From contig NZ_JAPNJX010000001.1 in NCBI RefSeq assembly GCF_026626685.1, positions 268,752 through 332,751 of the forward strand: 64,000 nt of DNA. Direction: 5' to 3'. Shown piece after piece: positions 5,684 to 60,723 of the stretch; positions within the stretch are counted from its first letter, which is position 1; the number at the start of each line of letters is the position of its first letter. The notes beneath the pieces are model-generated. The model made no database searches and was not told the DNA's origin. It saw only the letters and a list, made by a program, of their open reading frames with translations. The translations under genes and the position numbers were made by a program. This DNA comes from Nannocystis sp. SCPEA4 (GTDB taxonomy: Bacteria > Myxococcota_A > Polyangia > Nannocystales > Nannocystaceae).

Positions 5684-5902
5684 GAGGCGGGCACGGAGCG
5701 GCGGATTTGGGACGCCGGTGGGACGGAGACGCGGTTCAGCGCGCGCAGGCGCCCGTCTCCCCCCACGCGAGCAACCTGTCCTCAAGACCATCCTGTCCAA
5801 AGAGACAGCGCCGAGCACGTGAACCGGTAGGGGCCCGCCGAGCGAGGGACCCAAGTCCGCCGCTCCGTGCCCGCCGTCACCCAGTTCTTCCGGGCCCCGC
5901 GC
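5684..5902. repeat. MITE-like repeat element, copy B; a partial internal copy lies immediately upstream (~5565-5612)
   Basis: Left TIR 5687-5712 and right TIR 5850-5875 (1 mismatch). The internal caacctgtcctcaagaccatcctgtccaaagagacagcgccgagcacgtgaaccggtagggg is homologous to copy A. The right end overlaps the stop codon of the TetR gene. Confidence 0.8.
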
Positions 5903-6641
5903 CTCCGGACGAGCGAAGCTCTCCGGACTCCGCGCCTGCGGACGAGCGAAGCTCTCCGGACTCGGCCCCCGTGCCTCCGGACGAGCGAAGCTCTCCGGAC
6001 CCCGAACCTCCGGACGAGCGAATCTCCCCGGACTCGCCGGCCCCCTCGATCGCCCCGTAGAGCAACCGAGCCGCCCGAGCCACCTGCTCCACCACCGTCT
6101 CCGGCCCGTGCAGTTCCGCCGTCCAGCCGACCAGGCGAGAGAACCACACGTCCTGCAGGACCGCCAGCATCTCGAGCTCCGTCGCCGTCACCGGTCCCTC
6201 GTCGCGGCCGCGGATCGCCCCCACGATCAGCTCCATCAGCGCGCTGTGGAAGCGGTGCAGTCGTTCGGCCAGCGCGTTCTCTCCCGTCGCCGCCGAGCGG
6301 ATCACCGCGCGTCCCAGATGCGGTCGTGCGCACAGCGTCTCGGTCAGCGCTGCGAAGCACTCGATCAGGCGGTCGAGGCGGGTCGCGCCGGGGAGAGGTG
6401 CGTCGCCGAAGCGCTCGCGCAGCGCCACCAGCTCGAGCGACAGCACTCCGACCAGCAGGTCTTCCTTGCTGCGGAAGCGCTTGTAGACCGTGCCCAGGGC
6501 CACGCCGGACGCCTGGGCCACATCGCGCAGGCGCACGGCCGAGAACCCGCCGGACTCGGCGAGTCGGACTGCCGCGTCGAGGATTCGGCGGGCGCGGTCG
6601 TCGACGAGGGTGAGCTCGCCGGGGATCGGGGCAGCCGTCAT
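5877..6641 (-). CDS. TetR/AcrR-family transcriptional regulator with a repetitive C-terminal tail
   Basis: HTH ILDAAVRLAESGGFSAVRLRDVAQASGVALGTVYKRFRSKEDLL. The C-terminal ~50 aa is (SGELRSSGG)n, encoded by 30-bp tandem repeats. Lies downstream of the P450 on the same strand. Confidence 0.8.
   Translation of the reverse strand: MTAAPIPGELTLVDDRARRILDAAVRLAESGGFSAVRLRDVAQASGVALGTVYKRFRSKEDLLVGVLSLELVALRERFGDAPLPGATRLDRLIECFAALTETLCARPHLGRAVIRSAATGENALAERLHRFHSALMELIVGAIRGRDEGPVTATELEMLAVLQDVWFSRLVGWTAELHGPETVVEQVARAARLLYGAIEGAGESGEIRSSGGSGSGELRSSGGTGAESGELRSSAGAESGELRSSGGAGPGRTG
5890..6045. repeat. Tandem direct repeat, ~30-bp unit x ~4-5 (cggacgagcgaagctctccggac...)
   Basis: Seen directly in the sequence. 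It encodes the SGELRSSGG repeats of the TetR C-terminus on the minus strand. Confidence 0.8.
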
Positions 6642-6674
6642 GTCTCCCCGGTGTATGCGGCTCGGGGGCACGCG

Positions 6675-8057
6675 TCAACGCTTCGCTTCGACGCGAACGA
6701 GGACCCCGTGGCGGGGCCGCATCGTGATCTGGAATTCCTGCGCGATCCGGGCCTGCGGGCTCAGCGACAGGCGGAAGCGCTGGGCGATCATCGCCAGCAC
6801 CAGCGTCCCTTCGAGCAGCGTGAAATGATTGCCGATGCACATTCGCGGACCGGCGCTGAACGGGATGTAGGCCAGCTTGTGCCGACCTTGCGCCTGACCT
6901 GGCAGAAAGCGCGCGGGTTCGAAGCGCTCGGGTTCGTCCCAGAAGCGCGGGTCGCGGTGCATCAAGAACGGCACGTACAGCACGCGATCGCCCGGGTGGA
7001 CCCGGTGGCCGGCGAGTTCGGTCTCGGCCACGATGTCGCGCCCTCCGCTCCAGGTCGGCGGGTACAGCCGCAGCGACTCTTGCAGCACCGCCTTCGTGTA
7101 CGACAGCGTCGTCTGCACGTCCTCGGCGGTCGGCACGCGTCCATGGAGCGCATCGACCTCCGCGATCAAGCGGTCCCACACCTCCGGATGCGTCCCCAGC
7201 AGGTAGAACGTCCACGCCAGCGCGATCGCCGTCGTCTCGTGGCCTGCCAGGAAGAACGTCACGATCTCGTCCCGCACCAGCCGTGGGTCGAGCGGCGCCC
7301 CCTGTTCGTCGCGCGCGTTCAGGTACGCCGCCAGCAGATCGTCGCCGTGCGTCCCTGCCGCCCGGCGGCGCGAGATGATCTCGAACGTCACCTCGTCGAG
7401 CGTCCGCAGCGCCTTGCGCAGGCGCAGGTTGCCCGGCGTCGGCCAGTGCAGCGGCAGCTGCAGCATCTGGTTGCCGCGGCCCGACACCTGCTCGAGCGCC
7501 ACCGTGAACGCCTCCGCCGACTCGCCCACGCGCGCGCTGAGGTCGAGGCTGAAGAGCGTCTCGCCGATGATCTCCATCGCCAGCGCCAGCAGCTCCTTGT
7601 ACACGTCGAACTCGTCGCCGACCTTGTAGCGCTGCGTCCACGTCGTCAGCGTCCGCTCCGTCAGCCGCGTCATCTTGCCCGCCAGCGCCGCCACGCTGCC
7701 TTTATTGAAACTCGGCTGGGCGATCCGGCGTTCGCGCCGCCACAGCTCGCCCTCGCTGGTCAGGATCCCGTCGCCGACCAGCACGCGGATCGAGTCGTAC
7801 GTGTCGCGCTTGCCGTACGAGTCCTTGTCCGTCAGCAGGATCTGCTCGACCGCGTCGGGGTGCAGCGCCACGAACAGCGAGTGCTTGCCGACGCACAGAC
7901 GAAAGAAGTCGCCGTGCTTCTGCCGCGCCGCCTCGACCACCGGCATCAGCCCGTGGCGGGTGAGCATCGGCAGGTGGCCGAACACCGGCCACCGCGACGG
8001 CGTGGGGATCGAGTCGATGGGCGGCGGCGAGACACGGTCGAGCAGGGCTTGCAGCAC
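6675..8057 (-). CDS. Cytochrome P450
   Basis: Heme-binding loop FSAGPRMCIGNHF, AGHETT I-helix motif, ExxR. GTG start preceded by GAGG. Confidence 0.9.
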   Translation of the reverse strand: MLQALLDRVSPPPIDSIPTPSRWPVFGHLPMLTRHGLMPVVEAARQKHGDFFRLCVGKHSLFVALHPDAVEQILLTDKDSYGKRDTYDSIRVLVGDGILTSEGELWRRERRIAQPSFNKGSVAALAGKMTRLTERTLTTWTQRYKVGDEFDVYKELLALAMEIIGETLFSLDLSARVGESAEAFTVALEQVSGRGNQMLQLPLHWPTPGNLRLRKALRTLDEVTFEIISRRRAAGTHGDDLLAAYLNARDEQGAPLDPRLVRDEIVTFFLAGHETTAIALAWTFYLLGTHPEVWDRLIAEVDALHGRVPTAEDVQTTLSYTKAVLQESLRLYPPTWSGGRDIVAETELAGHRVHPGDRVLYVPFLMHRDPRFWDEPERFEPARFLPGQAQGRHKLAYIPFSAGPRMCIGNHFTLLEGTLVLAMIAQRFRLSLSPQARIAQEFQITMRPRHGVLVRVEAKR

Positions 8058-8073
8058 GGAGATTCGTCCTCTG

Positions 8074-8107
8074 TGAAACGCGTTCTACACACCTAGAACA
8101 CGTTTCA
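8074..8107. promoter_or_regulatory. Imperfect inverted repeat (candidate TetR-type operator) immediately upstream of the P450 start
   Basis: tgaaacgcgttctac-acac-ctagaacacgtttca, 15-bp arms with 2 mismatches. AT-rich relative to the genome. Lies between the putative promoter and the RBS of the P450-TetR transcription unit. Confidence 0.4.
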
Positions 8108-18879: not shown

Positions 18880-20960
18880 GCGAGCGGCCGGGCGCGAGTA
18901 CATCGTTCCGAACATTTGGCCTGCAAACCCGTTCAGGACGCAAGAGTGCGGGATAACTGCGTTGACAAGCGGGACAGACTCGCTCTAACTCAGGACGATC
19001 GCTCGCCTCCAAAGATCGGCTCCCTCGACAAAGAAGACCTCGCAGACACGTGCGAAGAAGGTATCTGAGAAATCTTCCCGGAAGGTGCTTGACCAATCTC
19101 GGCCCTCTGCCGCCCCCACGTATCATGCAGCCTTCGATGCTCGGAATGATCTTGCCATTCACACTCACAATGCCCGCCTCCTCTTCGCATTGGAAATCCG
19201 ATTCGGGATCGACGACATTCATTCCGCAGCCATCAATTCGCTGACAGATGGTCCGGACGACAAGAAGTGCGACTTAATTCACATTGACCGCGAACAGGGC
19301 TTTGCCGTAATCGCGCAGGCACACGAAAGAAAGAAGGGGAGAGCGGCAGGCTCGGCGAACAAAGCCAGCGACCTCAACACTGCGATTTCGTGGGCCCTCG
19401 GCGAAGAGTTAGATACCCTCCCCAAGCAGATCAAGGAAGCTGCACGTGAACTTCGTGACGCCATCAACGACCAGAGCATCACGCGACTACACGTATGGTT
19501 CGTTCATGGAGCCGCAGAGTCTTCAAATGTACGAGATGAGTTGCGCGCGGTCGAGCGGAATCTGAAACGCCTTATCAGAGATCACAACTGGGCAAAGCTC
19601 GAGACTGAAGTAACAGAAGTTGGGAGCAAGACCCTTGAGGAATGGTACTCAGCGCTGACATCTACAATCCAGGTCGGAGATAAGTTTGAGGTCAAAGTTC
19701 CCGGCGGCTATGTCATCAAAGACGCCGACAATGAATGGGAGGCCGCCGTTACGTCTGTTCCGCTATCTTGGATTCGGGAGGTTTTCCGGCGTCATCGAAG
19801 CAAGTTGTTCTCGGCAAACATTCGTGGATACTTGGGCGTTCGAGACACAGACGAGAACATCAACAATGGGATCAAGAGCACAGCAGTACGTGATCCTTCG
19901 AAGTTCTGGGCCTACAACAACGGCCTAACAGCGCTGGTCCACCGGTTCGAGTTTGATCCTGACTCCCCCTCAAAGCTACTCGTACTCCACGGTTTATCGG
20001 TAGTCAATGGCGCACAGACGACTGGCGCAATTGGCAACATTCCGGACGACATCAGCCCGGACGCCATGGTATCCATTCGCTTTGTCCGCACGACGGACAC
20101 CAGCATCGTACACAACATCATTCGGTACAACAACAGCCAGAACAGAGTTAACGCGTCAGATTTCCGCAGCAACGATAAAATCCAGCGCAGACTGCGGGAT
20201 CAGTTTAAGAGTCTGGATCCAGACATTGTATACCCCGGTGGGCGCCGCGGAGGGGAGTCTGACGCGATGGCTCGCTCCAAGAAGGATTATCTAATTCCCT
20301 CCGATTCCGCTGCACAAGCATTGGCGGCATTTCATCAAGAGCCAGGTTTGGCGTATTTACAGAAAGGACAGATCTGGGAAGATAACGAAACCTATCATAG
20401 ATTCTTCAATGACAAGACGACAGCATCGCACATTGTCTTCGTATTCTCGCTACTGCGTGCGGTCGAGAAAGCAAAATCAGAACTGCGCGAAAGAGCACAT
20501 AGAAACGAGATGACAGAGATCAATGAACGCGCGTACAATTTCTTCCTGGGCCGCGGTGCAACATATTTGCTGATAGCGGCCATCGGAAAGTGCCTGGAGA
20601 CGTTTGCGAAGAAAAGAATCCCAGAAACATTCAGAGTCTCATTTGGGAACGCGCGGTATCAAAGCGCCGTATCCTTCTGGAATCCAATCGTAGAGATTAG
20701 CCTTGCGGGGTGTGGCGTTCTCCAGCCTGCTGTCGATGCCAGACTGAAAGACAGTGCTGTGAAGGATGCATTGGGAAAGTTTCAGCAATTGATCGAGATG
20801 ACCAAACAGGCGAACATTTCGATCTACAATGAGTTCACTCGAAAGATCAAAATCGACTAGTGCGGCGGTCCCCCCGCAGATGCCTACTCCGCTCCCACGG
20901 CTGGGCTTGGCGCTCGTTTTCGCCCATGTGCAATTGGCGGATCTTCACACCAGCCGGTGA
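18880..20960. mobile_element. Low-GC (~50% vs ~72% host) island, ~2 kb, with no integrase or tRNA visible; carries a single AIPR gene
   Basis: Abrupt compositional shift visible in the raw sequence between malG and the S9 peptidase gene. Codon usage is AT-ending, unlike the flanks. Confidence 0.6.
19085..20860 (+). CDS. AIPR-family abortive-infection (phage resistance) protein
   Basis: 591 aa. Segments typical of AIPR (PF10592): RGYLGVRDTDENINNGIKSTAVRDPSKFWAYNNGLTALV, LSVVNGAQTTGAIG, IIRYNNSQNRVNASDFRSND. An N-terminal DGPDDKKCDLIHIDRE block is also present. Confidence 0.7.
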   Translation: MLDQSRPSAAPTYHAAFDARNDLAIHTHNARLLFALEIRFGIDDIHSAAINSLTDGPDDKKCDLIHIDREQGFAVIAQAHERKKGRAAGSANKASDLNTAISWALGEELDTLPKQIKEAARELRDAINDQSITRLHVWFVHGAAESSNVRDELRAVERNLKRLIRDHNWAKLETEVTEVGSKTLEEWYSALTSTIQVGDKFEVKVPGGYVIKDADNEWEAAVTSVPLSWIREVFRRHRSKLFSANIRGYLGVRDTDENINNGIKSTAVRDPSKFWAYNNGLTALVHRFEFDPDSPSKLLVLHGLSVVNGAQTTGAIGNIPDDISPDAMVSIRFVRTTDTSIVHNIIRYNNSQNRVNASDFRSNDKIQRRLRDQFKSLDPDIVYPGGRRGGESDAMARSKKDYLIPSDSAAQALAAFHQEPGLAYLQKGQIWEDNETYHRFFNDKTTASHIVFVFSLLRAVEKAKSELRERAHRNEMTEINERAYNFFLGRGATYLLIAAIGKCLETFAKKRIPETFRVSFGNARYQSAVSFWNPIVEISLAGCGVLQPAVDARLKDSAVKDALGKFQQLIEMTKQANISIYNEFTRKIKID

Positions 20961-35915: not shown

Positions 35916-36941
35916 TCAGAGGCGCGTGAGCAGCATGCAGTCGCCGTACGAGTAGAAGCGATAGCCGGCGGCCACCGCCTCGGCGTAGGCCGCGAGCACG
36001 CGCTCGCGCCCGCCGAGGCAGCACACCAGCATCAGCAGCGAGCTGCGCGGCAGGTGGAAGTTCGTGACGATCGCGTCGACCACCTTGAACTCGAAGCCGG
36101 GCGCGATCACCAGGTCGGTCGTGCCGGAGAACGGCGCGATCTCGCCGGCGCGGGCGACTGCCTCGAGGGCGCGCGTTGCCGTGGTGCCGACGGCCACCAC
36201 CGGCCGGCCCTCGGCCTTCGCCGCCGCGATCCGGCTCGCGGCCGCCGCGTCGAGCTCGACCCGCTCGGCGCCGACCTTGTGCTCGCGGACATCCTCGGCC
36301 TCGAGCGGCAGGAACGTGCCCGGCCCGACGTGCAGCGTCACCCGCACGACGTCGAGCTGCGCCAGCACCTCGGGCTCCCAGTGCAGTCCGGCCGTCGGCG
36401 CGGCCACCGAGCCCGGCTGCGCCGCGTAGGTCGTCTGGTAGCGCGACGCGTCCTCGTCGGTCGGCCCCGCGGGCCGGCGGATGTACGGCGGCAGCGGCAC
36501 CTCGCCGCGACTGGTGAGCGCGCCCATCCACTCGCCGGCCTCGACGCAGAACACCCGCGCCCGCGGGTCGACGGCGTCGGGCTCGACGTAGCGGGCCGCC
36601 CACTCGCCGCAGCGCACCACGTCGCCGGCCCGCAGCCGCTTGGCCCCGCGGACCCACGCGCGGAACGTCTGCCCCGGCAACAGCCCCGGCCGCGGATCGC
36701 AGACCAGCAGCTCCAGCTCGCGCCCGTTGTGCAGCACCCGCAGCCGCGCCGGCACCACCCGCGAGTCGTTGACCACGACCAGCGCGCGCGGGTCGAGGAA
36801 GCGCGGCAGCTCACGCGCATGCGCGTGGACCGGCGCCCCCGCGTCGCGCTGCACCAGCATGCGGGCATCGCCCCGCCGCGCCGCCGGCGTCTGGGCGATC
36901 TGCTCGGGCGGCAACACGTAGTCGTAGGCTTCGGGACCCAT
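35916..36941 (-). CDS. queA: S-adenosylmethionine:tRNA ribosyltransferase-isomerase
   Basis: Full-length colinearity with QueA (MGPEAYDYVLPPEQIAQTP...GTTATRALE...). The ORF was trimmed to the conserved N-terminus. Confidence 0.9.
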   Translation of the reverse strand: MGPEAYDYVLPPEQIAQTPAARRGDARMLVQRDAGAPVHAHARELPRFLDPRALVVVNDSRVVPARLRVLHNGRELELLVCDPRPGLLPGQTFRAWVRGAKRLRAGDVVRCGEWAARYVEPDAVDPRARVFCVEAGEWMGALTSRGEVPLPPYIRRPAGPTDEDASRYQTTYAAQPGSVAAPTAGLHWEPEVLAQLDVVRVTLHVGPGTFLPLEAEDVREHKVGAERVELDAAAASRIAAAKAEGRPVVAVGTTATRALEAVARAGEIAPFSGTTDLVIAPGFEFKVVDAIVTNFHLPRSSLLMLVCCLGGRERVLAAYAEAVAAGYRFYSYGDCMLLTRL

Positions 36942-37021
36942 CGCTCGCGCGCGGGTTTTGACACACCCCCGCCGCCGCACACAAGTGGTCCGCGCCGCGC
37001 GACAGTGCCATCCTCGCCGCA

Positions 37022-38386
37022 GTGTCCGCCCGCACGCTCCTCGCCGCCGCCTCCCTCGCCCTGCTCGCCCTGGCGCCCGCGTCGGTCCGCGGCGGCGAGT
37101 CGAGCGCCGAGCGCCTGCACCGCAAGGGCGTGCACTGCATGGAGGAGATCGAGCGCCGCGACTGCGCGATCGAGCACTTCGAGGCGCTGCTCGACGAGCG
37201 CACCGATCGCCGCGAGCTGGTCACCGACGGCCTCCTGCGCCTCGTGAAGCTGTACGAGAAAGAGGATCGACCCGAGGACCTCAAGGCCGCGCTGCGCCGC
37301 TTCTGGGACGCCGGCAAGACCGACACCCGCCGCGGCCACCTGCCCTACACCGCCCGCTTCCTGCCGAAGGACTTCGACGTCGTCTTCCACGCCCACATGC
37401 AGCGCCTCATGGCCGCGCCGCTGGCCAAGCAGCTCGACGAGATCGCCGAGTACGTCATGACCTGCGACCCGCACGTGCGCGACCAGCTCGACGACGTCCG
37501 GATCTTCCGCAAGGCCCAGCGCAAGGCCCGAGAGACAGGTGTGACTGTCCAAAAGGCCATGTCCGACGTCGTCGCCGAGGAGAAGAAGCGGACCGAGGCG
37601 TACAAGAAGCGGCGCGCCCAGGCCGAGGCCGAGGGACGCCCGCGCCGGCCAGAGCCGGTGTTCGCCGACGCCACCTGCCAGGTCGCGCGCGCCCTCGGCG
37701 ACGACACCGCGGCCGTCTGGACCCGCGGCGCGTTCGCCCTCGCGCACGGCGACTTCACCCGCTCCGCCGCGATCATCGAGATCCCCGACCTCGCCGCCAA
37801 GCTCGAGGCCGCGGTCGCCGCCGGCCGCCTGCTCCCCCGCGGCGAGCGAGCCTATGCGCTCACGCCGCTGCGCTACCACGGCGGCGAGGTGCTGCTGCGC
37901 GTGCTCGACGGCGGCGAGCTGGTCGTCGCGCCGCCGGCTGTCATGAACGAGATCGCCGCCAACTACGCCCGCGGCAAGCGCACGCTGCCCCGCGAGGTCG
38001 ACCGCCTCGTCGTCGGCGTGCCGGTCGACGCCGGCTTCTTCGCCGTCGCCACCGAGGCCGCCGTCCGCGAGCTCGGCTTCGGCGGCATGTCGAAGGGCCG
38101 CCGCGGCCTGCTCCAGCTGCTGCTGCCGCGCCCCGAGGGCCTGCAGATGGCCGGCGTGGCCCACGAGTACTTCGGCTTCTTCCTCCGCATGCCGACGGAC
38201 ACCCCGCTCAAGGCCGGCGCGCTCGTCGAGATCGTCCAGCGGATGATCGCCAACCAGGCCGAGGCCGACTCCGAGAGCGCCGACTTCCTGCGCCTGCTCG
38301 ACGTGACTCAAGCCACGGACAAGCGCGCGCTCCTCCTGTCGTACGTCATGTCGCGCCGGCAGATCGAGACGATCGTGCTGCGCTGA
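37022..38386 (+). CDS. Secreted hypothetical protein (454 aa)
   Basis: Signal peptide (V)SARTLLAAASLALLALAPASVRG. High GC3. No family recognised. Confidence 0.55.
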   Translation: MSARTLLAAASLALLALAPASVRGGESSAERLHRKGVHCMEEIERRDCAIEHFEALLDERTDRRELVTDGLLRLVKLYEKEDRPEDLKAALRRFWDAGKTDTRRGHLPYTARFLPKDFDVVFHAHMQRLMAAPLAKQLDEIAEYVMTCDPHVRDQLDDVRIFRKAQRKARETGVTVQKAMSDVVAEEKKRTEAYKKRRAQAEAEGRPRRPEPVFADATCQVARALGDDTAAVWTRGAFALAHGDFTRSAAIIEIPDLAAKLEAAVAAGRLLPRGERAYALTPLRYHGGEVLLRVLDGGELVVAPPAVMNEIAANYARGKRTLPREVDRLVVGVPVDAGFFAVATEAAVRELGFGGMSKGRRGLLQLLLPRPEGLQMAGVAHEYFGFFLRMPTDTPLKAGALVEIVQRMIANQAEADSESADFLRLLDVTQATDKRALLLSYVMSRRQIETIVLR

Positions 38387-38396
38387 GCGGCGAGGC

Positions 38397-40112
38397 GTGG
38401 CAGTCTTGTCCCCCGTGGCGACCCCCCTGTCGGCCCTCTCGCTGATCGCCTGGCTCGCGCTCGCCGGCGCGGCACCTGGCGGTTCGAGCATGTCCATTGG
38501 CGCAGGTCCTGGCGGCCAGGTGCGTTCGGACATGTCCGAACGGCCAGGCCCGCTCCTGGCCCTCGCGCCGGCCCGCGGCGGCAAGGCCAAGGCCCCCGCC
38601 CCCGAGCCCGCTCCGGCCCCCGCCCCGCCGGCCTACGGCCCCGAGCAGGCCCGCGCCGACATCGAGCTCGTGCTCACCGGCCGCGGCCAGGACTACCTGC
38701 AGGCCCGCGCGCGGCTCGAGCAGCACCCGACCGTCGCCGCGCCCCTGGTCACCGCGCGCATGACCGCCACGCCCGCCCCCACCGCCGTCGAGCAGCGCCG
38801 CCTGCTCGCGCTGCTCGGCGGCATCGCCCGCCCCGAGGACGTCCCGCTGTTCGCCGACGCCATGCGCCGCGACGTCGCCGCCGCGGCCAAGCAGTCGCAG
38901 GAGCAGGGCATCGAGCTGCCGGCCGCCGAACCATGGCGCCAGATCCTGCGCGCCCAGGGCCCTGCGGCCGCGCCGGCGCTCACCGGGCTCGTGGGGGAGA
39001 AGTCGTTCAGCGAGGAGCTGCGCGGCCTCCTGCTCGCCGACCTCGTCGCCGTCACGCCGGCCGACAAGCTGCCCGAGCTCGTCGCGCTGGTCGGCCTCGG
39101 CGCGCCGAGCCTGCGCGCCGCGCTGCGCCAAGCGATCGCTCGCCGCGCGCACGCGTCCGCCGACGAGCGGGCCCAGCTCGTGCGGGTCGTCGACGCCGCG
39201 ATCGAGGCCCGCGAACCGGCGCGCCTGCCCGGCCTCGTGCTGCTGCGCGCCGCGATCGGCGGCAGCGACGACGGCGTGTTCACCCAGCGCGCGGCCGCCC
39301 TCGCCGAGGACGCGGCCGCCGAGTTCGCCGCCCGCGTCGCCGCGCTCCGCGTGCTCGTCGCGCGGCGCAGCGACCCCGCGGCGCAGACGGTGCTGGCGCG
39401 CCTCGCCGAGCAGCACCTGCCCGCCGACAAGCGCGTCGAGCTGCGCAGCGAGATCCTCGGCAGCCTCGCCCTCGCCGGGCTCGAGCCCGGCCCTGCCGCC
39501 GCCGTCGTCGACCGCCTGCAGCTCACCGGCGCCGACGCGCCGCGGGTCGCCGTCGCGGCCTTCTCCGTCGCCACCTTGCCGGCCGACGGCGCCTGGCTCG
39601 ACGCTAGCCAGCGCCACGCCTGGCCCGAGGTCCGCGCCGCCGCGCTCGCCCGCGTCGACGGCCCGTGCTCGCCAGGCATCCTCCGCCGGCTGCGCGACGG
39701 CACCAGCACCTCGGGCAACACCTTCGAGACCGACGCCACCGTCGCGCGCGAGGTCATCGCCGCGCTCGGCCGCTGTGGGGGTCCCGACGCCTTCGCCGCG
39801 CTGCAGGCCGTCGTGGTCGACGCCAATCAGAACGTCGACCGACGGGCCGAGGCCGCGCGCCAGCTCGTCGATCGCCACGGCAGCGCCGGCGCCGACGTCG
39901 TCGCCGCCGTATTGCGCAGCACCGACGACCTCGCGGTCGCGCTCCGCCTCGTGCGCGCCCTGCAGCGCTGGCCCGACGACAAGGCGCCCCCCTCCGACGG
40001 CGTGCGCCAGGCCCTGTGCGCCGCGAGCAAGCGCCAGGAGCTGGCCACGATCGCCCAGCGGGCCGTCCGCGGCCTGTTCCCCGACCTCGACGACCCCTGC
40101 GCGGGCAACTGA
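38397..40112 (+). CDS. HEAT/ARM-like repeat protein, probably exported
   Basis: Alpha-helical Ala/Leu-rich repeats (…LVALVGLGAPSLRAALRQAIARRA…). The N-terminal ~45 codons contain the palindrome ttcggacatgtccgaa, so the true start may be the Met at ~38530. Confidence 0.5.
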   Translation: MAVLSPVATPLSALSLIAWLALAGAAPGGSSMSIGAGPGGQVRSDMSERPGPLLALAPARGGKAKAPAPEPAPAPAPPAYGPEQARADIELVLTGRGQDYLQARARLEQHPTVAAPLVTARMTATPAPTAVEQRRLLALLGGIARPEDVPLFADAMRRDVAAAAKQSQEQGIELPAAEPWRQILRAQGPAAAPALTGLVGEKSFSEELRGLLLADLVAVTPADKLPELVALVGLGAPSLRAALRQAIARRAHASADERAQLVRVVDAAIEAREPARLPGLVLLRAAIGGSDDGVFTQRAAALAEDAAAEFAARVAALRVLVARRSDPAAQTVLARLAEQHLPADKRVELRSEILGSLALAGLEPGPAAAVVDRLQLTGADAPRVAVAAFSVATLPADGAWLDASQRHAWPEVRAAALARVDGPCSPGILRRLRDGTSTSGNTFETDATVAREVIAALGRCGGPDAFAALQAVVVDANQNVDRRAEAARQLVDRHGSAGADVVAAVLRSTDDLAVALRLVRALQRWPDDKAPPSDGVRQALCAASKRQELATIAQRAVRGLFPDLDDPCAGN

Positions 40113-40114
40113 AG

Positions 40115-41395
40115 ATGGCCACCGACAAGCCCAGGCTCCGCAAGGTCGAGCGCGTCGCGCTGCAGCGCGGCGACGAGGCGCTGATCGTCCTGCGCGACCC
40201 GACCGGCCTCAGCGAGCAGGTGGCCTTCCCGCAGGAGGCCTCCGTCATCCTCGACGCGCTCGACGGCCAGCGCACCGTGCCGCAGCTGCGCCAGTCGCTG
40301 GCGATGCGCGGGATCATCGACATCCCGCTCGCCGACCTCGAGGCCCTGGTGCGCGACCTCGAGAGCGCCGGCTACCTCGACGACGACGCCTTCCGCGCCC
40401 GCTGGGAGGCCATCCACCGCGAGTTCCTGGCCAATCCGGTGAGGCGGCCGCGCTGGGCCGGCCTGCTCTACCCCGACGACCCGACGGCCCTCGGCGCCGC
40501 CCTGGCCGCCGCGCTACCTGACCCTTCGGCCAGGCTCGCCGACGCCAGCGAGATCCTCGGCGTGCTCCTGCCGCACCAGCCGCTGCCGGGCACCGGCGCC
40601 GCGCCGCCCGACGCCGCCGTCCACGCCGCCGCCGGGCTGAGCGACGAGGTCCTGCGCGGCCTGCCGCGCGCCCGCGACATCGACCTCGTCGTCGTCGTCG
40701 GCACCGACTACCACCCCGGCCTGCAGCCGTTCGTCATCACCGACAAGCGCTACGCCACCCCGCGCGGCGAGCTGGCCAGCGACCCGGCGCTGGTCCGCGC
40801 GCTCGACCGCCGCCTGCCGTGGATCCGGCGCGAGGAGATCCGCCACCGCGAGGCGCTGAGCCTCGAGCTCGCCGCGGCTGTCCTTCAGCACCTGTACGAT
40901 GGAGCATGTCCTCCCGTACTCCCGGTGCTGTGCGGCCCGGGCGCGATCGAGCTCGACGACGGCGGCCCGGTCGAGAGCTTCCTCGCCACCATGGAACATG
41001 TCCTCGAGGACAGGCGCGTGCTCTGGTGGGTGACCGCCGAACTCGGCCACGAGGGGCCCGCCTACGGCCGCCCGCCGCTGACGCGGGAGCGGGCCGCTGC
41101 CCTGGTGGCCCGCGACCGAGCCTGCCTGGCCGCCCTGGCCGACGCGCGGCCCGAGCAGCTGGAGCGCTGCTGCAAGGGCGTCCCGGGCCTCGACCCGCCG
41201 AGCGGCACCGCGGCCCTCGTCACCGCTGCGCGTCTGTTCCCTGTCGGCTACGGGGCCGACCTCGTCGCTTACGCGTCTGGCCGCCCGGTCGGTCCCGACG
41301 ACGGGTGGGTCGGCCTCGGCGGGGTCCGCTTCACGCGGCCCGCCGACACCGGCGACGACGACGACTTCAGGCCCGCGAGCCCGCGAGCCTCATGA
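40115..41395 (+). CDS. PqqD-like (RiPP recognition element) domain fused to a MEMO1/AmmeMemoRadiSam-B-like domain
   Basis: N-terminus VERVALQRGDEALIVLRDPTGLSEQVAFPQEASVILDALDGQRTVPQLRQSL...DLEALVRDLESAGYL is colinear with PqqD (…ILELVDGRRDVAAI…). Then WAGLLYPDDPTAL resembles the Memo family AG(S)FYP motif. Confidence 0.55.
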   Translation: MATDKPRLRKVERVALQRGDEALIVLRDPTGLSEQVAFPQEASVILDALDGQRTVPQLRQSLAMRGIIDIPLADLEALVRDLESAGYLDDDAFRARWEAIHREFLANPVRRPRWAGLLYPDDPTALGAALAAALPDPSARLADASEILGVLLPHQPLPGTGAAPPDAAVHAAAGLSDEVLRGLPRARDIDLVVVVGTDYHPGLQPFVITDKRYATPRGELASDPALVRALDRRLPWIRREEIRHREALSLELAAAVLQHLYDGACPPVLPVLCGPGAIELDDGGPVESFLATMEHVLEDRRVLWWVTAELGHEGPAYGRPPLTRERAAALVARDRACLAALADARPEQLERCCKGVPGLDPPSGTAALVTAARLFPVGYGADLVAYASGRPVGPDDGWVGLGGVRFTRPADTGDDDDFRPASPRAS

Positions 41396-41960
41396 TCTGC
41401 TCGACGGCCTGCTCGACCGTCAGCGGGATCCGTCCCTGCGGGTCGACCGACGCCTGGGCCGCCAGCCCGTAGATCACGGCGATGATGCCGCGAGCCACCA
41501 CCTGCGGGTCCCCGGCCAGCACGCCCTGCTCCACGCCGCGGCGCACGATCTCGGCGTAGGCGCTGCGCATCTCGGCGAACGTCTTCTCGAGCTTCTCGCG
41601 GTACTCCTGGATCTGGCCCGACATCGTCACCAGCAAGTTGCAGAGCTTGGCCTCGTCGCCGTGCTCCACGAACAGGCGGAGGTGGTTGGCCGCCACCTGC
41701 GCGAGCGCCCGGTCGGCCGGCAGGTCCGGCGGGACGTCCGCCGCCCAGCGCTCTTGCAGGGCCAGGAGCTGCGCGTCCAGGATGTCGTGGAACAGCGACT
41801 CTTTGGCCTTGTAGTGGAAGTAAACCCCGCCCTTGCTGAGGCCGGCGTCGCGGGCGATATCCAGGAGCCGCGTCGAGGAGTAGCCGCGGCGCACGAAGCA
41901 CCGCGTCGCCGCAGCCCTGATCTGCTGCTTGCGCTGGTCGTCGATCTTCTGGCGTGTCAT
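41367..41960 (-). CDS. TetR-family transcriptional regulator
   Basis: HTH IRAAATRCFVRRGYSSTRLLDIARDAGLSKGGVYFHYKAKESLF. The 3' end overlaps the convergent upstream gene by 29 bp. Confidence 0.8.
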   Translation of the reverse strand: MTRQKIDDQRKQQIRAAATRCFVRRGYSSTRLLDIARDAGLSKGGVYFHYKAKESLFHDILDAQLLALQERWAADVPPDLPADRALAQVAANHLRLFVEHGDEAKLCNLLVTMSGQIQEYREKLEKTFAEMRSAYAEIVRRGVEQGVLAGDPQVVARGIIAVIYGLAAQASVDPQGRIPLTVEQAVEQIMRLAGSRA

Positions 41961-42284
41961 CGCTGCTCCCCACCCTCCCGGCGCCTGGCCAGCGCCCCCG
42001 GCCTCCACGCTAACGGAGACCCCCACCGGTCTGTAAAGCCGCCTCGCACCCTCACAGACGACGGGTGATAATGGCCCTCTCGCCGCGAACGGCCGCGTAG
42101 AGGTGGCCTGGCCGCCGGATCGGCCCTTGTGCGGTGCGCGGGCGGTATCGGCCCTCGCACGCGTCGATCTCCGTCGCCGTGAGCTCGCTGCTGGCGGGCG
42201 ATGCCGCCCCGCGCGAGGCTACCCCTTGGCCCGACCCCCTCCTGAATAAGACACTAAGTCGCGCGTCCTGGACGCCGAGGTTTT

Positions 42285-42839
42285 ATGCGCAAGCTCCTTC
42301 CGGTCTTCATGGCCATCGCCTTCTCGCTGCCCGCCTGCTCCTTCTCGTATTCGTCGTCGAGCCGCTCCGGAACGGCGCCAGGCACCACCAACGGGACGAA
42401 GAACGGCAAGGGCAAGCCGGCGCGCCAGGCCGCGGTCGACACGTCGAGCACACCTGCTCCGGCTCCCGCTGCCAAGCCCGCCCCCAAGCCTGCCCCCGAG
42501 CCCGAGCCCGCCACCACCACTCCCGAGCCCGCGCCGGAGCCGACCGAAGAGCCCACGCCGGGCCGCGCCACCGACCCCAAGCCGGGCCGCGCCACCGACC
42601 CCAAGCCGGGCCGCGCCACCGACCCCACGCCGGCCCGCCTCGATCCGGCGACCCAGGTCGCCCCGCGTGACGGCACGCAGAAGGCCGGCCTCAGCCTCAC
42701 TACCGGCGAGTCCAAGCCCAAGACCAGCACCATCTCCAACGGCGGCGCTGCGCCCACGACCAAGCCCGCCACCCTGACCGGCACCCCCAAGCCGACCGAG
42801 CCGCCCAAGAACGGGGCCAAGCTGGCCGCGCCGCAGTGA
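42285..42839 (+). CDS. Pro/Thr/Ala-rich lipoprotein with 3 perfect 24-bp tandem repeats (PGRATDPK x3)
   Basis: Lipobox LPAC. The repeats ccgggccgcgccaccgaccccaag x3 at ~42553-42625 are seen in the sequence. Confidence 0.55.
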   Translation: MRKLLPVFMAIAFSLPACSFSYSSSSRSGTAPGTTNGTKNGKGKPARQAAVDTSSTPAPAPAAKPAPKPAPEPEPATTTPEPAPEPTEEPTPGRATDPKPGRATDPKPGRATDPTPARLDPATQVAPRDGTQKAGLSLTTGESKPKTSTISNGGAAPTTKPATLTGTPKPTEPPKNGAKLAAPQ

Positions 42840-44619: not shown

Positions 44620-45080
44620 GTTGACCGTGCGAGCGCGCGGCGGCTCCGCGGACGGCGGGGTCGCGGCGCGTGATCTCGGTGCCTCTTGCGGCGGCGACGA
44701 CTCCCAGTCTGCAGAGCCCCGCTGCGCGCGCCCTCGCGTCGTCTCCTGCGGCGGCGACTCCCGCTGCGCGCGCCCGCGTGTCGTCTCCGGCTGCGACGAC
44801 TCCCAGTCCCCGGAGCCCGGCTGCGCGCGCCCGCGTGTCGTCTCCTGCGGCGGCCACGGCTCCCAGTCTCCGGGGTCGGGCTGCGGCGACGGCTCCCAGT
44901 CCTCGGGGCCCGGCTGCGCGCGACCGCGTGTCGTCTCCTGCGACGGCTCCCAGTCCGCAGGGCCCGGCTGCGCGCGCCCTCGCTTCGTCTCCTGCGGCGG
45001 CGGCCCCGAGGCCGCCGGGCCCGGTTGTGTGCGCGCTCGCGGCTCGGACTCGCGGGCGGATCTGGCCTGGTCTTCGGGCC
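44620..45080. repeat. Degenerate tandem repeat array, ~45-90-bp units x ~6-7
   Basis: Units of the form cctgcggcggcgactcccagtc...ggctgcgcgcgcccgcgtgtcgtct. On the minus strand they translate to (PQETTRGRAQ...DWEPS)n, either an N-terminal extension of UDG or an intergenic array. Confidence 0.7.
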
Positions 45081-56635: not shown

Positions 56636-56665
56636 GTTGACACGGCAAACGTGGATTGGCTATTG
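56636..56665 (+). promoter_or_regulatory. Candidate sigma70-like promoter for the giant repeat protein gene
   Basis: TTGACA (56636-56641) - 18 nt - TATTGC (56660-56665). Preceded by four ggatcc(t)t direct repeats. Speculative. Confidence 0.25.
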
Positions 56666-56874
56666 CCTCCCGGCCCTTGGTCGCCTCTGAGCCCACTGCG
56701 CGCCTCGGAGGCGCCGACGCGAGTCCCCAGCTCGACGCGCCCGGCGACGTCCCGGTCGTCGGCGCCGTCATCCACACGCGCGTCGCCACAGTGTCCGCCT
56801 GCCTGATCGGCGCCTGTCTGATCGGACTTGTCCCTCGGGACAGCCACGCCGCGCGCCCCGTCCCGCAGCTCGGC

Positions 56875-59800
56875 ATGGTCGCCTCGACCGGCGCGCCGAC
56901 CTGGCCGGCCCTGCACGCCGCGCCCGGGCTGCGCCCTGCCGACCTGGTCGCCGGCCTCGGCGCGCCGCTGCTGCTCGCCCCGCCGCGCACCACCCCGCGG
57001 CGCCTGACCGGCGGCCAGGCCGAGCCGCCCGCCGGCGAGCCGCCTGCGAGCGAGCCGCCCGCGAGCGAGACGGCCGCGCCGGTCGAGCCTGTCCCTGAGG
57101 ACATGCCCGCTCAGCCAGGGCCTTCGGGACCTGGCCCGACGGGCAGCCCGCTGACGCGGCCGACCCCGAACCTCGCGCCGCCGCCGAGCGGCGACGATCT
57201 CCAGGCCGGTGACGAGGAGGTCGCGCCGGCGCCGGAGCCGACCAACGACAACGCCCCGCCGGTGACGGTGCTGGTGCCCGAGCCGGAGAAGCCCGACCCG
57301 ACCGACGAGGTCCCGCGCTTCCTCAAGGGCAAGAGCGTCCCGCCGTTCTGGATCGACCGCACCTACACGACGCACCGCACGCGCGCGCTGACGCTGCCGC
57401 CGCTGTTCTTCGACCGCCGCGGCACCGCGACCCATCCGGAGAAGCTGTTCCACTTCAACCTGTCCTTAACGACAGGTTGGTACAGCCAGCGCACGGCCAA
57501 GCGGCGGTGGTTGTCGCCGGCGATCCTGTTCTTCGGCTCGTTCAGCGAGCGCACCAGCGGCTGGGGCGCGGTCGCGCTGCTGATGGGCTACAAGCGGGTC
57601 GGCGAGCAGTTCAGCTTCGGCCAGTTCCCGTTCGTGTGGCGGTGGGGCAACAAGTCGGTCAAGAACCTGATCGTCGTCCCCTTCCACTACCACCAGAAGA
57701 CGCCCGACAGCATGCGCGGCTTCTCGGCGGTGCTGTTCTGGTACGGCCACAAGAACACCACCGACAAGGACCCGCTCAACGACCTGCGCTACTTCGTCGG
57801 CTTCCCGCTGTTCTACCGCGTGACCCGCGGCCCGAGCACCGTCAACGTCGGCGTCCCGCTCTACGTCGGCGGGCAGAACAAGGCCCGCGGGGTCAAGTGG
57901 CACACGGTGCTGCCGTTCGTGCACTGGCAGTCGAGCGAGTACGGCAACCGCAAGGACCTGTGGACGCTGCTGTACGTGCAGCGCAGCGACAAGGCCCGCA
58001 GCCTGCGCGCGTGGGCCGTCCCGCCGCTCCTCACGTTCTCGCACCAGACCCCGACGCGCAAGCTGTTCTCGGCCACGCCGCTGGTGTGGCGCGCCGAGAA
58101 CCGCGACCGCGGCAGCGTCGCCTGGTCGGCGTTCCCGTGGGTCAGCTACCGCGACCCGGAGCAGCGCAACCGCGTGCTGTTCCCGCTGTTCTGGCAGTTC
58201 GGCGACCTGAAGGCCGGCGTCACCAGCAGCGTGTTCGTCCCGCTGCTGTACGCGCGCAAGAGCCCGCAGGACACGCGGGTCTACACCCTGCTCGGAGGCG
58301 GTCGCGCCGGCAAGGACGGCCGCTGGGGCTTCGGCATCACCCCGCTGCTGACGTTCGTGCGCAACGAGCCGGGCGGCAAGAGCTTCCAGGTCGTCACGCC
58401 GCTGTTCGGCCACTCGCACGACCCGAGCGCCTACGACGGCAAGGGCTCGCGCACGCTGTCGGCCGGCGTGCTCGGCTTCTACCGCCGCCGCGGCGAGCGC
58501 TGGGACGCCGGCCTCGCCCCGCTCGCGTTCGTCGGCCGCGACGGCACCCGCTCGTACCAGACCATCACCCCGCTGTTCTGGCACCGCCGCGACACCGACC
58601 CGGCCAAGCCGAGCGACCTGTGGGTGCTCGGCCCGATCTACGCCAAGAAGGTCAAGTCCGGCGGGCACGGCGGCCTCGCACCGCTGGTGTTCGCCGGCCG
58701 CGACGACAAGTTCCGCTACGGCATCGTCCCGCCCTTGCTCTTCGGACATGTCCACGACGTCGAGGCCCAGCGCGCGCTGACGGTGTCGCCGCTGTTCGCC
58801 CGCAGCAAGGGCCCCGACCACCGCACGATCGGCGTGCTCAACCTGTTCTGGGACGTGAAGCGCGCCGGCGACGAGCGCCACACCGCGCTGTTCCCCCTCT
58901 TCTACCGGCGCCAGAAGGACGGCAAGGCGCTCACCCTCACCCCGCTGGGCGGCGCCTACCGCACGCCGGAGCAGCGCACCTGGTCGGCCGCGGCGCTCCT
59001 GTACGGCTTCCGCGGCTACAAGGATCCGGTCCGCCGCGGCTTCGGCCTGATCCCGCTGGTGTTCTACGATCGGCGCAAGGTCGAGGGCGGCGTCGCCAGC
59101 AACCTCGTCGTCGCGCCGCTGTTCGCCCGCCACCGCGCGCCCACCGAGGACCTCGACATGTGGTCGCCGCTGGTCTGGCGCACCGCCACCCGCGGCGAGA
59201 AGCCGCGCAAGAACCTCGCGGTCGTCCCGTTCTACTTCCGCCAGCGCCAGCCCGAGGGCATCGACGTCGACGCCGGCCTGCTGCTGCCGTTCTTCTACAG
59301 CCGCGACAAGGTCCGGCGCACGCACACGCTCATCGCCGGCCCGGCGTTCCACCGCCTCACCCGCACCTCGCTCAACGCCGGCGTGGTCCCGGTCTACTGG
59401 TGGATGGACTCGGCGGAGAAGCGGCGCCTGATCTCGCTGCCGCTCATCTTCCACCAGGCCGACAAGGGGAAGAACGAGCACACCACCATCGCCGTGCCGT
59501 TCTGGTTCGACCGTCAGCGGGCCAACGGTCGCCGCTCGTGGGTCGCGTTCCCGTTCGTCGTCGGCGTCAAGGGTCAGTTCAACTTCACGCGCTTCAGCCT
59601 GACCCCGCCGATCTTCTTCGACTTCTTCCGCCTGCACAAGAACTACCGCTTCACCGGCGTGGTCCCGTTCGCGTTCCGCTACCAGAAGTGCGGCTTCCGC
59701 GAGGAGGACGACGATCGTTGCCGCTACACGCTGTGGGGCTCGTGGCCGTTCTTCCTCTACGGCAAGGACGGCAAGGGCCGCACCAGCCACGGCGCGTTGA

Positions 59801-60723
59801 TGCTCTACTACTTCGACAAGGACCCGGGCGGCCGCCGGTTCCTCACCTTGCTGGGCGGCGCCAACGTGCGGCCCGGCGAGCGCCTCACCTGGTACGCGCT
59901 CAACTTCGGCCACACCACCACGCGGCAGTTCAAGACCACCGTCTTCTTCCCGCTGTTCTTCCGCAAGGCCTACCGCACCAAGGATCGCAGCACCACCGTC
60001 GTGCTGCCGCCGCTGTTCGTCGGCGCCCACCGCGAGGACTACCGGTGGTTCCAGGCCGGGCTGATGGTCTGGAACTTCCGCCGGCCGCACAAGGTGACCA
60101 CCGTGGTCGCGCCGCCGCTCTTCTACACCGCGCACAGCTACGCCGAGCGGCGCATGACCTGGCTCTTGCCGCTGTTCCTGCGCGACAACAACTGGGCCAA
60201 GGACACCACCTTCACCAGCGTCTTCCCGGCCCTGGTGTTCCAGCGCCGGCGCGGCCAGGACAACGACTGGGTCCAGTTCCCGCTGATCTGGCACATCGAG
60301 CGCGGCGAGAACTCGGGCACCTTCGGCGCCTTCTTGTGGTGGGACATCCGCCGCAAGGGCCGCGTCACCCAGGTCGTGCCGGCCATCTGGGCCCGCCAGC
60401 GCGGGCGCGGCCGCGAGACCCAGGTCATCGGCCCCGGCCTCGGCTGGTGGTGGCGCACCGAGCAGACGATCAGCGACGCCAAGGGCGACGGCATCGGCGT
60501 CAAGAAGGGCCTCCACTGGCGCGCCCTGTTCGGCCTCATCGGCGGCGGCAACGACGGCGCGCAGCGCTACTTCTCGCTGTTCGGCGGCCGGATCCCCCTG
60601 CGGCCCAAGGCCGTGTGGGAGCCGCGACGCAAGCGCCTCAAGGCCCAGACCCCCGCCGCGCCCAAGGCCCTGCCCCCGGCCGCGCCCAAGGCCCCGGTCG
60701 AGCCCGCCCAGCCCAAGCCCTGA
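56875..60723 (+). CDS. Large (~1280 aa) basic protein composed of ~50 tandem ~22-residue repeats centred on an aromatic-x-P-L-F motif; uncharacterised family
   Basis: GC3 ~97% in this frame over 3.8 kb. Repeats such as LAPLAFVGRDGTRSYQTITPLFWHRRDTD, LAPLVFAGRDDKFRYGIVPPLLFGHVHD, ALFPLFYRRQKDGKALTLTPLGGAYRT. Pro/Ala-rich N-terminal ~170 aa. The start could lie upstream (ORF opens at 56656). Confidence 0.7.
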   Translation: MVASTGAPTWPALHAAPGLRPADLVAGLGAPLLLAPPRTTPRRLTGGQAEPPAGEPPASEPPASETAAPVEPVPEDMPAQPGPSGPGPTGSPLTRPTPNLAPPPSGDDLQAGDEEVAPAPEPTNDNAPPVTVLVPEPEKPDPTDEVPRFLKGKSVPPFWIDRTYTTHRTRALTLPPLFFDRRGTATHPEKLFHFNLSLTTGWYSQRTAKRRWLSPAILFFGSFSERTSGWGAVALLMGYKRVGEQFSFGQFPFVWRWGNKSVKNLIVVPFHYHQKTPDSMRGFSAVLFWYGHKNTTDKDPLNDLRYFVGFPLFYRVTRGPSTVNVGVPLYVGGQNKARGVKWHTVLPFVHWQSSEYGNRKDLWTLLYVQRSDKARSLRAWAVPPLLTFSHQTPTRKLFSATPLVWRAENRDRGSVAWSAFPWVSYRDPEQRNRVLFPLFWQFGDLKAGVTSSVFVPLLYARKSPQDTRVYTLLGGGRAGKDGRWGFGITPLLTFVRNEPGGKSFQVVTPLFGHSHDPSAYDGKGSRTLSAGVLGFYRRRGERWDAGLAPLAFVGRDGTRSYQTITPLFWHRRDTDPAKPSDLWVLGPIYAKKVKSGGHGGLAPLVFAGRDDKFRYGIVPPLLFGHVHDVEAQRALTVSPLFARSKGPDHRTIGVLNLFWDVKRAGDERHTALFPLFYRRQKDGKALTLTPLGGAYRTPEQRTWSAAALLYGFRGYKDPVRRGFGLIPLVFYDRRKVEGGVASNLVVAPLFARHRAPTEDLDMWSPLVWRTATRGEKPRKNLAVVPFYFRQRQPEGIDVDAGLLLPFFYSRDKVRRTHTLIAGPAFHRLTRTSLNAGVVPVYWWMDSAEKRRLISLPLIFHQADKGKNEHTTIAVPFWFDRQRANGRRSWVAFPFVVGVKGQFNFTRFSLTPPIFFDFFRLHKNYRFTGVVPFAFRYQKCGFREEDDDRCRYTLWGSWPFFLYGKDGKGRTSHGALMLYYFDKDPGGRRFLTLLGGANVRPGERLTWYALNFGHTTTRQFKTTVFFPLFFRKAYRTKDRSTTVVLPPLFVGAHREDYRWFQAGLMVWNFRRPHKVTTVVAPPLFYTAHSYAERRMTWLLPLFLRDNNWAKDTTFTSVFPALVFQRRRGQDNDWVQFPLIWHIERGENSGTFGAFLWWDIRRKGRVTQVVPAIWARQRGRGRETQVIGPGLGWWWRTEQTISDAKGDGIGVKKGLHWRALFGLIGGGNDGAQRYFSLFGGRIPLRPKAVWEPRRKRLKAQTPAAPKALPPAAPKAPVEPAQPKP

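Follow-up and report, generated by a model that had tools for sequence, protein, structure and literature searches.

Memo proteins range from bacteria to humans, and to our knowledge their molecular function is still not known. Human MEMO1 binds iron and copper through H49, H81 and C244, with D189 and H192 as non-ligands; the mutants H49A and C244S show no iron binding, and no activity was found for the protein (PMC11081632). Fusions of a RiPP (ribosomally synthesised and post-translationally modified peptide) recognition element (RRE) to "Memo-like proteins (PF01875)" have been called "unprecedented in RiPPs" in an update of RRE-Finder, and the supplementary model table of that work lists them as RREFam044, "Memo_RRE", with no function, substrate or context given (PMC12710340, mSystems, November 2025). 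Here we describe a gene of this architecture from Nannocystis sp. SCPEA4. It occupies 40115..41395 on the forward strand of the window, by which we mean the whole 64-kb stretch of contig NZ_JAPNJX010000001.1 that was analysed; coordinates below are positions in this window, and residue numbers refer to the 426-aa product. The protein has kept both domains, and judged from the alignments the metal site of its Memo domain has been eroded throughout the Nannocystaceae.

In characterised RREs the extended peptide is added as a strand beside β3, against α3. The RREs of RiPP pathways (PqqD, TfuB1, TbiB1, PbtF, LynD, TigE and PaaA), whether discrete or fused, adjoin a precursor peptide and tailoring enzymes, whereas the RRE described here lies in a housekeeping block and no precursor candidate was found for it. 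The JmjC ribosomal oxygenases MINA53 and NO66 and the lysine methyltransferases PKMT2 (rickettsial) and Rv2067c (mycobacterial) resemble our protein in the fold of this domain only; they differ from it in domain order and have unrelated catalytic domains. On the Memo side, human MEMO1 (PDB 3BCZ, 7KQ8, 7L5C and 7M8H) has the same fold at about 14% identity and shares the N-terminal AG..Y, the PH and the [DE]LxHxG motifs with our protein, but it has no RRE. The Nannocystis protein also scores above the cutoff for protein B of the AmmeMemoRadiSam system (TIGR04336) and carries that annotation publicly; it differs from that system in the added RRE and in the degenerate metal site, and neither AMMECR1 nor the radical SAM partner was found among the window genes scanned or beside its homologues. 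The Memo_RRE architecture, an N-terminal βββ-ααα RRE followed by Memo, equals that of our protein, and the link is drawn from this architecture and from full-length homology to a wide family of ~410-aa proteins rather than from the RREFam044 HMM. Compared with typical Memo_RRE members, the Nannocystaceae clade has lost the Cys ligand and often one His ligand as well.

The reading frame at 40115..41395 is clearly coding by the GC content of its three codon positions (0.81/0.52/0.94), and its upstream extension to a GTG at 39665 shows a non-coding pattern (0.95/0.77/0.55). Its ATG lies 2 nt past the stop of the preceding gene, and it runs for its last 29 nt into the 3' end of a convergent TetR gene. 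The product is cytoplasmic, with no signal peptide, and contains the motifs ILDALDGQRTVPQL...EALVRDLESAGYL at residues 45-87 and AGLLYPDDP at residues 115-123; the coding signature and the motif positions thus bear out the gene and both motifs as quoted in a first-pass annotation made from the sequence alone. It is 99% identical to a protein of Nannocystis radixulma (strain NCELM) annotated as "AmmeMemoRadiSam system protein B". The full-length AlphaFold2 (AF2) model, built with 38 homologues, has a pLDDT of 91.8 and a pTM of 0.88. An acidic C-terminal tail (residues 409-426, 41339..41392, forward strand) is modelled at low confidence (pLDDT 44-56) and is limited to the closest Nannocystis homologues.

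The C-terminal part of the protein (residues 110-407, 40442..41335, forward strand) is a Memo/LigB-fold domain with a degenerate metal site. Pfam Memo (PF01875) matches residues 112-352 at 45.5 bits, above the gathering threshold of 27, and TIGR04336 matches residues 110-402 over model positions 1-266 of 270 at 43.4 bits against a cutoff of 26; the MEMO1 equivalog model NF001987 is not passed (25.5 bits against a cutoff of 295). In a Foldseek search with the model, human MEMO1 (3bcz_A) was matched with E 7.3e-14 and a TM-score of 0.79, with LigB-type extradiol dioxygenases next.

The N-terminal domain (residues 12-85, 40148..40369, forward strand) is predicted to consist of β12-18, β21-27, β36-39, α40-48, α55-64 and α72-85. 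The βββ-ααα order agrees between two independent AF2 models, one of the full-length protein and one of the domain only (pLDDT 93.9), with pLDDT above 90, and it is the order by which RREs are defined in PMC12710340; the domain is also similar in structure to experimentally defined RREs. Pfam and NCBIfam scans of the whole protein did not report PqqD. With the excised domain all matches were below cutoff (PKMT_2nd at E 0.016, PaaA-like_N at E 0.06 and PqqD, PF05402, at E 0.1), so that structure and family profiles were needed. With a profile of 21 N-domains, PaaA is matched close to its N-terminus (residues 44-95, E 0.0028) and PqqD less well (E 0.11), and 9 of 58 long homologues match PF05402 directly (best E 1.7e-8). 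The resemblance to PqqD, sub-threshold for the single sequence, is therefore judged to be real on the predicted structure and the family profiles. A linker helix (residues 91-106, 40385..40432, forward strand) with conserved F93, R94, W97 and F104 joins the RRE rigidly to Memo; it has a pLDDT above 90 in both models, and its "LDxxRFR" segment is also present in the wider family. Both assignments of the first-pass annotation, an RRE/PqqD-type domain in the first ~90 residues and a Memo/LigB fold in the remainder, thus stand against the outcome that it had named as fatal to its reading, namely an N-terminal domain without the RRE fold and a C-terminal domain unrelated to Memo/LigB.

The same annotation had taken a direct RRE-Memo fusion with no radical SAM enzyme nearby to be unusual; the fusion is not. 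When the N-domain profile was run against 1.84 billion cluster representatives, 1021 were matched at E <= 1e-3 and 134 at E <= 1e-10, many of them 400-440 aa long, and 56 of the 58 long matches carry Pfam Memo. An hhalign comparison of the Nannocystaceae alignment (38 sequences) with a wide-family alignment (44 sequences) gave a probability of 100 and E 1.7e-71 over 398 columns, the N-domain included, and with the wide-family alignment as query at least 2678 proteins of ~410 aa were retrieved at E <= 1e-30. Named sources of the wide family are the Anaerolineae, Ardenticatenia and Caldilineae (Chloroflexota), the Nitrospinota and the Polyangia. By sequence comparison, then, the fusion is a widespread family that extends across several phyla and was already catalogued as RREFam044.

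What distinguishes the Nannocystaceae within this family is the metal site. When the wide-family profile is aligned to MEMO1 (E 8e-29), H49, H81, H131, D189, H192 and C244 are all matched; among the 44 sequences of this family the first five are present in every one and C244 in 43. The corresponding residues of the Nannocystis protein are H154 (H49), Y199 (H81), L248 (H131), E309 (D189), H312 (H192) and S363 (C244). At the positions of the 2-His-1-Cys site (H49, H81 and C244) it thus has H154, Y199 and S363, which makes it a natural equivalent of the metal-free C244S mutant of MEMO1. The C244 position is Ser in all 38 sequences of the Nannocystaceae alignment, and in a set of 51 genome-derived Nannocystaceae sequences it is Ser in 50, Thr in one and Cys in none. 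In the same set the D189 position is Glu in all 51 and the H131 position is His in only 12, being Asp in the Enhygromyxa/Plesiocystis group. Tyr at the H81 position is found only in cultured Nannocystis species, the present copy included, and Tyr at the H49 position in a second, separate subclade of Nannocystis-like metagenome-assembled genomes (MAGs). These ligand losses track subclades (loci L014-L069), while Ser for Cys is clade-wide. An Anaerolinea orthologue from the scan of GTDB genomes retains H/H/H/D/H/C, and a Polyangia orthologue (P0238) retains the canonical metal-site motifs; upstream of the latter stand a β-propeller gene and next a Ser/Thr kinase gene, similar to the Enhygromyxa neighbours in Pfam family and gene order. 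As far as these alignments can tell, the substitution of the Cys ligand in 51 of 51 sequences is what is new here.

The genomic setting was studied in a scan of GTDB species representatives, which yielded 57 loci, 55 of them of Nannocystaceae type (one MAG contributing two contigs) from Nannocystis, Enhygromyxa, Plesiocystis, Paraliomyxa and related MAGs. The gene lies in a block of the order queA ... RRE-Memo, TetR, HU, UDG, coaBC, ribBA, ribE, ribD, nrdR and fab genes; it is a core gene of the Nannocystaceae in a conserved housekeeping block, and not part of a biosynthetic cluster. On the far side of two lineage-specific genes, queA (35916..36980, reverse strand; Queuosine_synth at 3.5e-102) is divergent from them and from the RRE-Memo gene and serves as a synteny anchor, being on the same side in loci L001-L007. 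Downstream, a TetR-family regulator (41367..42026, reverse strand; TetR_N at 3.5e-13) is convergent with the RRE-Memo gene, and its orthologue lies immediately downstream in the same convergent orientation in 49 of 50 loci with sufficient flank; TetR is the only gene always beside RRE-Memo in the clade. Upstream in L002, L003 and L012, minus-strand genes of ~410-440 aa gave an impression of synteny, yet they are not homologues. Neighbours vary widely across the wider family, one locus having a sigma factor and proteases. In two Chloroflexota loci (L008 6729..10494 and L009 6740..10503, in the numbering of each locus) the RRE-Memo gene stands between an NTP-transferase/hexapeptide gene and MoeA, and the Memo and MoeA frames overlap.

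Upstream neighbour A (37022..38386, forward strand, 454 aa) has a signal-peptide-like N-terminus and no family assignment, with no Pfam or NCBIfam match above threshold. Neighbour B (38397..40112, forward strand, 571 aa) has a hydrophobic N-terminus and weak similarity to HEAT repeats (HEAT_2 at E 0.0017 and 19 bits, under the cutoff of 27.7). Both had been described as exported, and a HEAT-repeat protein had been named in the cluster; signal-peptide-like N-termini, judged by eye, agree with export, and the HEAT-repeat label is weak. Both proteins are confined to the Nannocystaceae, the 53 homologues of B being all of Nannocystis or Myxococcales origin. The three genes had also been regarded as a cluster, yet they are not a fixed unit: B is directly upstream in 22 of the 55 loci and 1.8-6 kb away in 7, and is missing from the 6 kb around the gene in loci that include those of Enhygromyxa and Plesiocystis, while A was detected, together with B, in 18 loci and is absent from those of Plesiocystis and Enhygromyxa. 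A PADLOC run on four genes gave no defence-system match, and a promoter and terminator scan of 35.3-42.3 kb returned no promoters and one terminator-like site, at chance level.

Domain scans of ~43 window genes found no radical SAM or AMMECR1 domain, in keeping with the earlier remark that no radical SAM enzyme lies nearby, and neither was adjacent to the gene in any of 13 loci inspected. Nor was an open reading frame (ORF) for a precursor peptide found beside the RRE-Memo gene, as had been noted by eye before. Precursor, tailoring, protease and export genes do not adjoin it, the actual neighbours being queA, the two exported lineage-specific proteins, TetR, a lipoprotein, HU, UDG, coaBC and the rib genes. 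In Plesiocystis a 91-aa ORF precedes the RRE-Memo orthologue; it was rejected as a precursor candidate because its signal is of lipoprotein type and none of the other loci has a homologue. Two ORFs of ~95 and ~75 aa are common to two Polyangia loci, downstream of RRE-Memo, and are absent from the window and from the Nannocystaceae loci L001-L007. A tblastx comparison of intergenic regions with related loci for small ORFs gave only compositional noise in this DNA of 72% GC.

The two Polyangia-type loci just mentioned (L011 2276..3727 and L012 9247..10740, again in their own numbering) have RRE-Memo followed by an ORF of ~92-104 aa, an OmpA-domain gene and an ORF of ~70-87 aa. The first ORF is 44% identical between them and overlaps the Memo stop in L012, and in L011 a Memo-AMMECR1 fusion lies 7 kb from the RRE-Memo gene. 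These genes could be partners of the canonical enzymes, and none of them occurs in the window or in L001-L007.

We propose that the Nannocystis copy is a peptide- or protein-binding module whose Memo site has been disabled or rewired, a reading that we consider about evenly poised. The wide family keeps the complete 2-His-1-Cys site of MEMO1 type, and for this reason the ancestral protein was probably a metal-dependent enzyme, or a metal-handling protein, acting on a segment that the RRE holds, be it of a peptide or of a protein. The N-terminal RRE, tethered by the conserved helix, would capture an extended peptide segment of a partner, one not supplied by a precursor gene next to it. Vertical inheritance would have kept the gene as a core gene of the Nannocystaceae while the metal site was eroded stepwise, by Cys to Ser (once Thr) and Asp to Glu across the clade, by loss of most of the H131 equivalents, and by Tyr at the H81 equivalent in cultured Nannocystis. 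With the site so eroded, the protein is most likely a binding module without canonical Memo metal binding, and it may act as a pseudoenzyme or adaptor, or else as an enzyme with rewired chemistry. The earlier interpretation, which saw a possible uncharacterised peptide-modification or peptide-sensing system, is supported in part, the replaced metal ligands weakening the case for an active modifying enzyme in this copy.

In favour of our proposal, the RRE and the Memo domain are both still conserved within the clade, with mean pairwise identities of 56% and 50%, and the clade has an invariant motif of its own (W236, R239, E240, R243, R245 and E251). Several points weigh against it. The Memo domain is under clear purifying selection and hence not simply decaying. 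The conserved H154, H200, H312, E251, E309 and C273 could make a different site. The loss of metal binding is an extrapolation from the mutants of human MEMO1. Finally, the short gaps of 10 nt between A and B and of 2 nt between B and the RRE-Memo gene suggest co-transcription and a possible functional link in Nannocystis.

Other explanations were weighed against the same evidence. The protein could be directed at another protein, as an enzyme or reader whose RRE-like domain docks a segment of a folded housekeeping protein onto Memo, by analogy with the JmjC ribosomal oxygenases and protein lysine methyltransferases that have a similar domain, RRE-like and of winged-helix type in the oxygenases; no substrate candidate was identified for such a role, and the eroded metal site speaks against oxidative catalysis in the clade, and we see it as a possible but minority explanation. 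That the protein is instead a modifying enzyme of a RiPP or other peptide-maturation pathway, its RRE recruiting the leader of an overlooked or distant precursor and Memo modifying the core, is suggested by the RRE fold, which is a hallmark of RiPP enzymes, by the treatment of Memo-RRE fusions as candidate RiPP enzymes in RRE-Finder (PMC12710340), and by the conserved ~95-aa ORF that overlaps or follows RRE-Memo in the two Polyangia loci. We nevertheless find it unlikely, because the gene belongs to the core set across 55 Nannocystaceae-type loci and sits in a housekeeping block, its surroundings lack proteases, transporters, radical SAM enzymes and other RiPP genes, no conserved small ORF was found adjoining it (the Plesiocystis ORF being lipoprotein-like and unique), the neighbours in the wider family vary widely, and the catalytic metal ligands are lost in the clade.

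The public annotation would make the protein a canonical AmmeMemoRadiSam protein B, with its AMMECR1 and radical SAM partners elsewhere in the genome. It passes the TIGR04336 cutoff, homologues are so named by NCBI, JGI and UniRef, and one Polyangia contig, as described above, has a Memo-AMMECR1 fusion close to its RRE-Memo gene; against this stand the lack of either partner among the ~43 window genes scanned and next to the gene in the 13 loci inspected, the 108 additional residues of the RRE outside the 270-position TIGR04336 model, the failure of the MEMO1 equivalog and the non-conserved metal triad. We hold this assignment to be very unlikely. A one-component regulator, with the N-terminal domain as a winged helix binding DNA and the Memo-like domain as its sensor, is the least probable of the explanations and would surprise us.

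Some features of the surrounding DNA deserve mention. Next to the TetR gene, and divergent from it, a gene at 42285..42839 (forward strand) encodes a 184-aa, Pro/Thr-rich lipoprotein with a MRKLLPVFMAIAFSLPAC lipobox; because of this divergent arrangement it is a likelier target of TetR than the RRE-Memo gene. A 24-nt tandem repeat within it (42552..42638, 3.6 copies) encodes GRATDPKP units. Further along the block, a nested tandem-repeat array (44689..45041, periods 54/93, ~2.7-2.9 copies) lies in or just upstream of the N-terminal part of the UDG-family gene (43873..~45084, reverse strand). A second TetR regulator (5877..8084, reverse strand) stands beside a cytochrome P450, and 8.3-18.9 kb holds a cluster of α-amylase, LamB porin and MalK-type ABC genes. 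The 591-aa product of the gene at 19085..20860 (forward strand) belongs to the AIPR (abortive infection phage resistance) proteins (PF10592, E 1.7e-36). This gene, which has a maltose-type ABC permease gene on one side and an S9 prolyl oligopeptidase gene on the other, lies in a low-GC patch at 18-22 kb (GC 0.615, against ~0.72 elsewhere) and looks like a horizontally acquired defence gene. A 1360-aa ORF at 56641..60723 (forward strand), with a strong coding signature (GC3 of 0.97), matches no Pfam family at E <= 1e-4.

That Memo is permanently joined to a peptide-recognition domain throughout a large bacterial family gives circumstantial support to the view that Memo domains of bacteria act on peptides or proteins, a lead that is already published as a catalogue entry. 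What this window adds is the fusion as a conserved core gene outside any biosynthetic cluster, and a stepwise natural loss of ligands while both domains remain conserved. Taken alone, the Nannocystis copy is a weak start in the search for new peptide natural products. For biochemistry, it forms a ready comparison pair with a canonical orthologue from the Polyangia or Chloroflexota. It is tempting to speculate, though we regard it as a rather doubtful extension of our data, that Memo_RRE is a widespread housekeeping system rather than a natural-product family, in which a stretch of a cellular protein, or a peptide encoded at a distance, is docked by the RRE onto the 2-His-1-Cys metal site of Memo, and of which the Nannocystaceae branch would be a non-catalytic reader or adaptor, maybe tied to the A/B pair or to TetR. 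If true, this would give bacterial Memo its first defined substrate class and would be a case of an RRE working outside RiPP biosynthesis.

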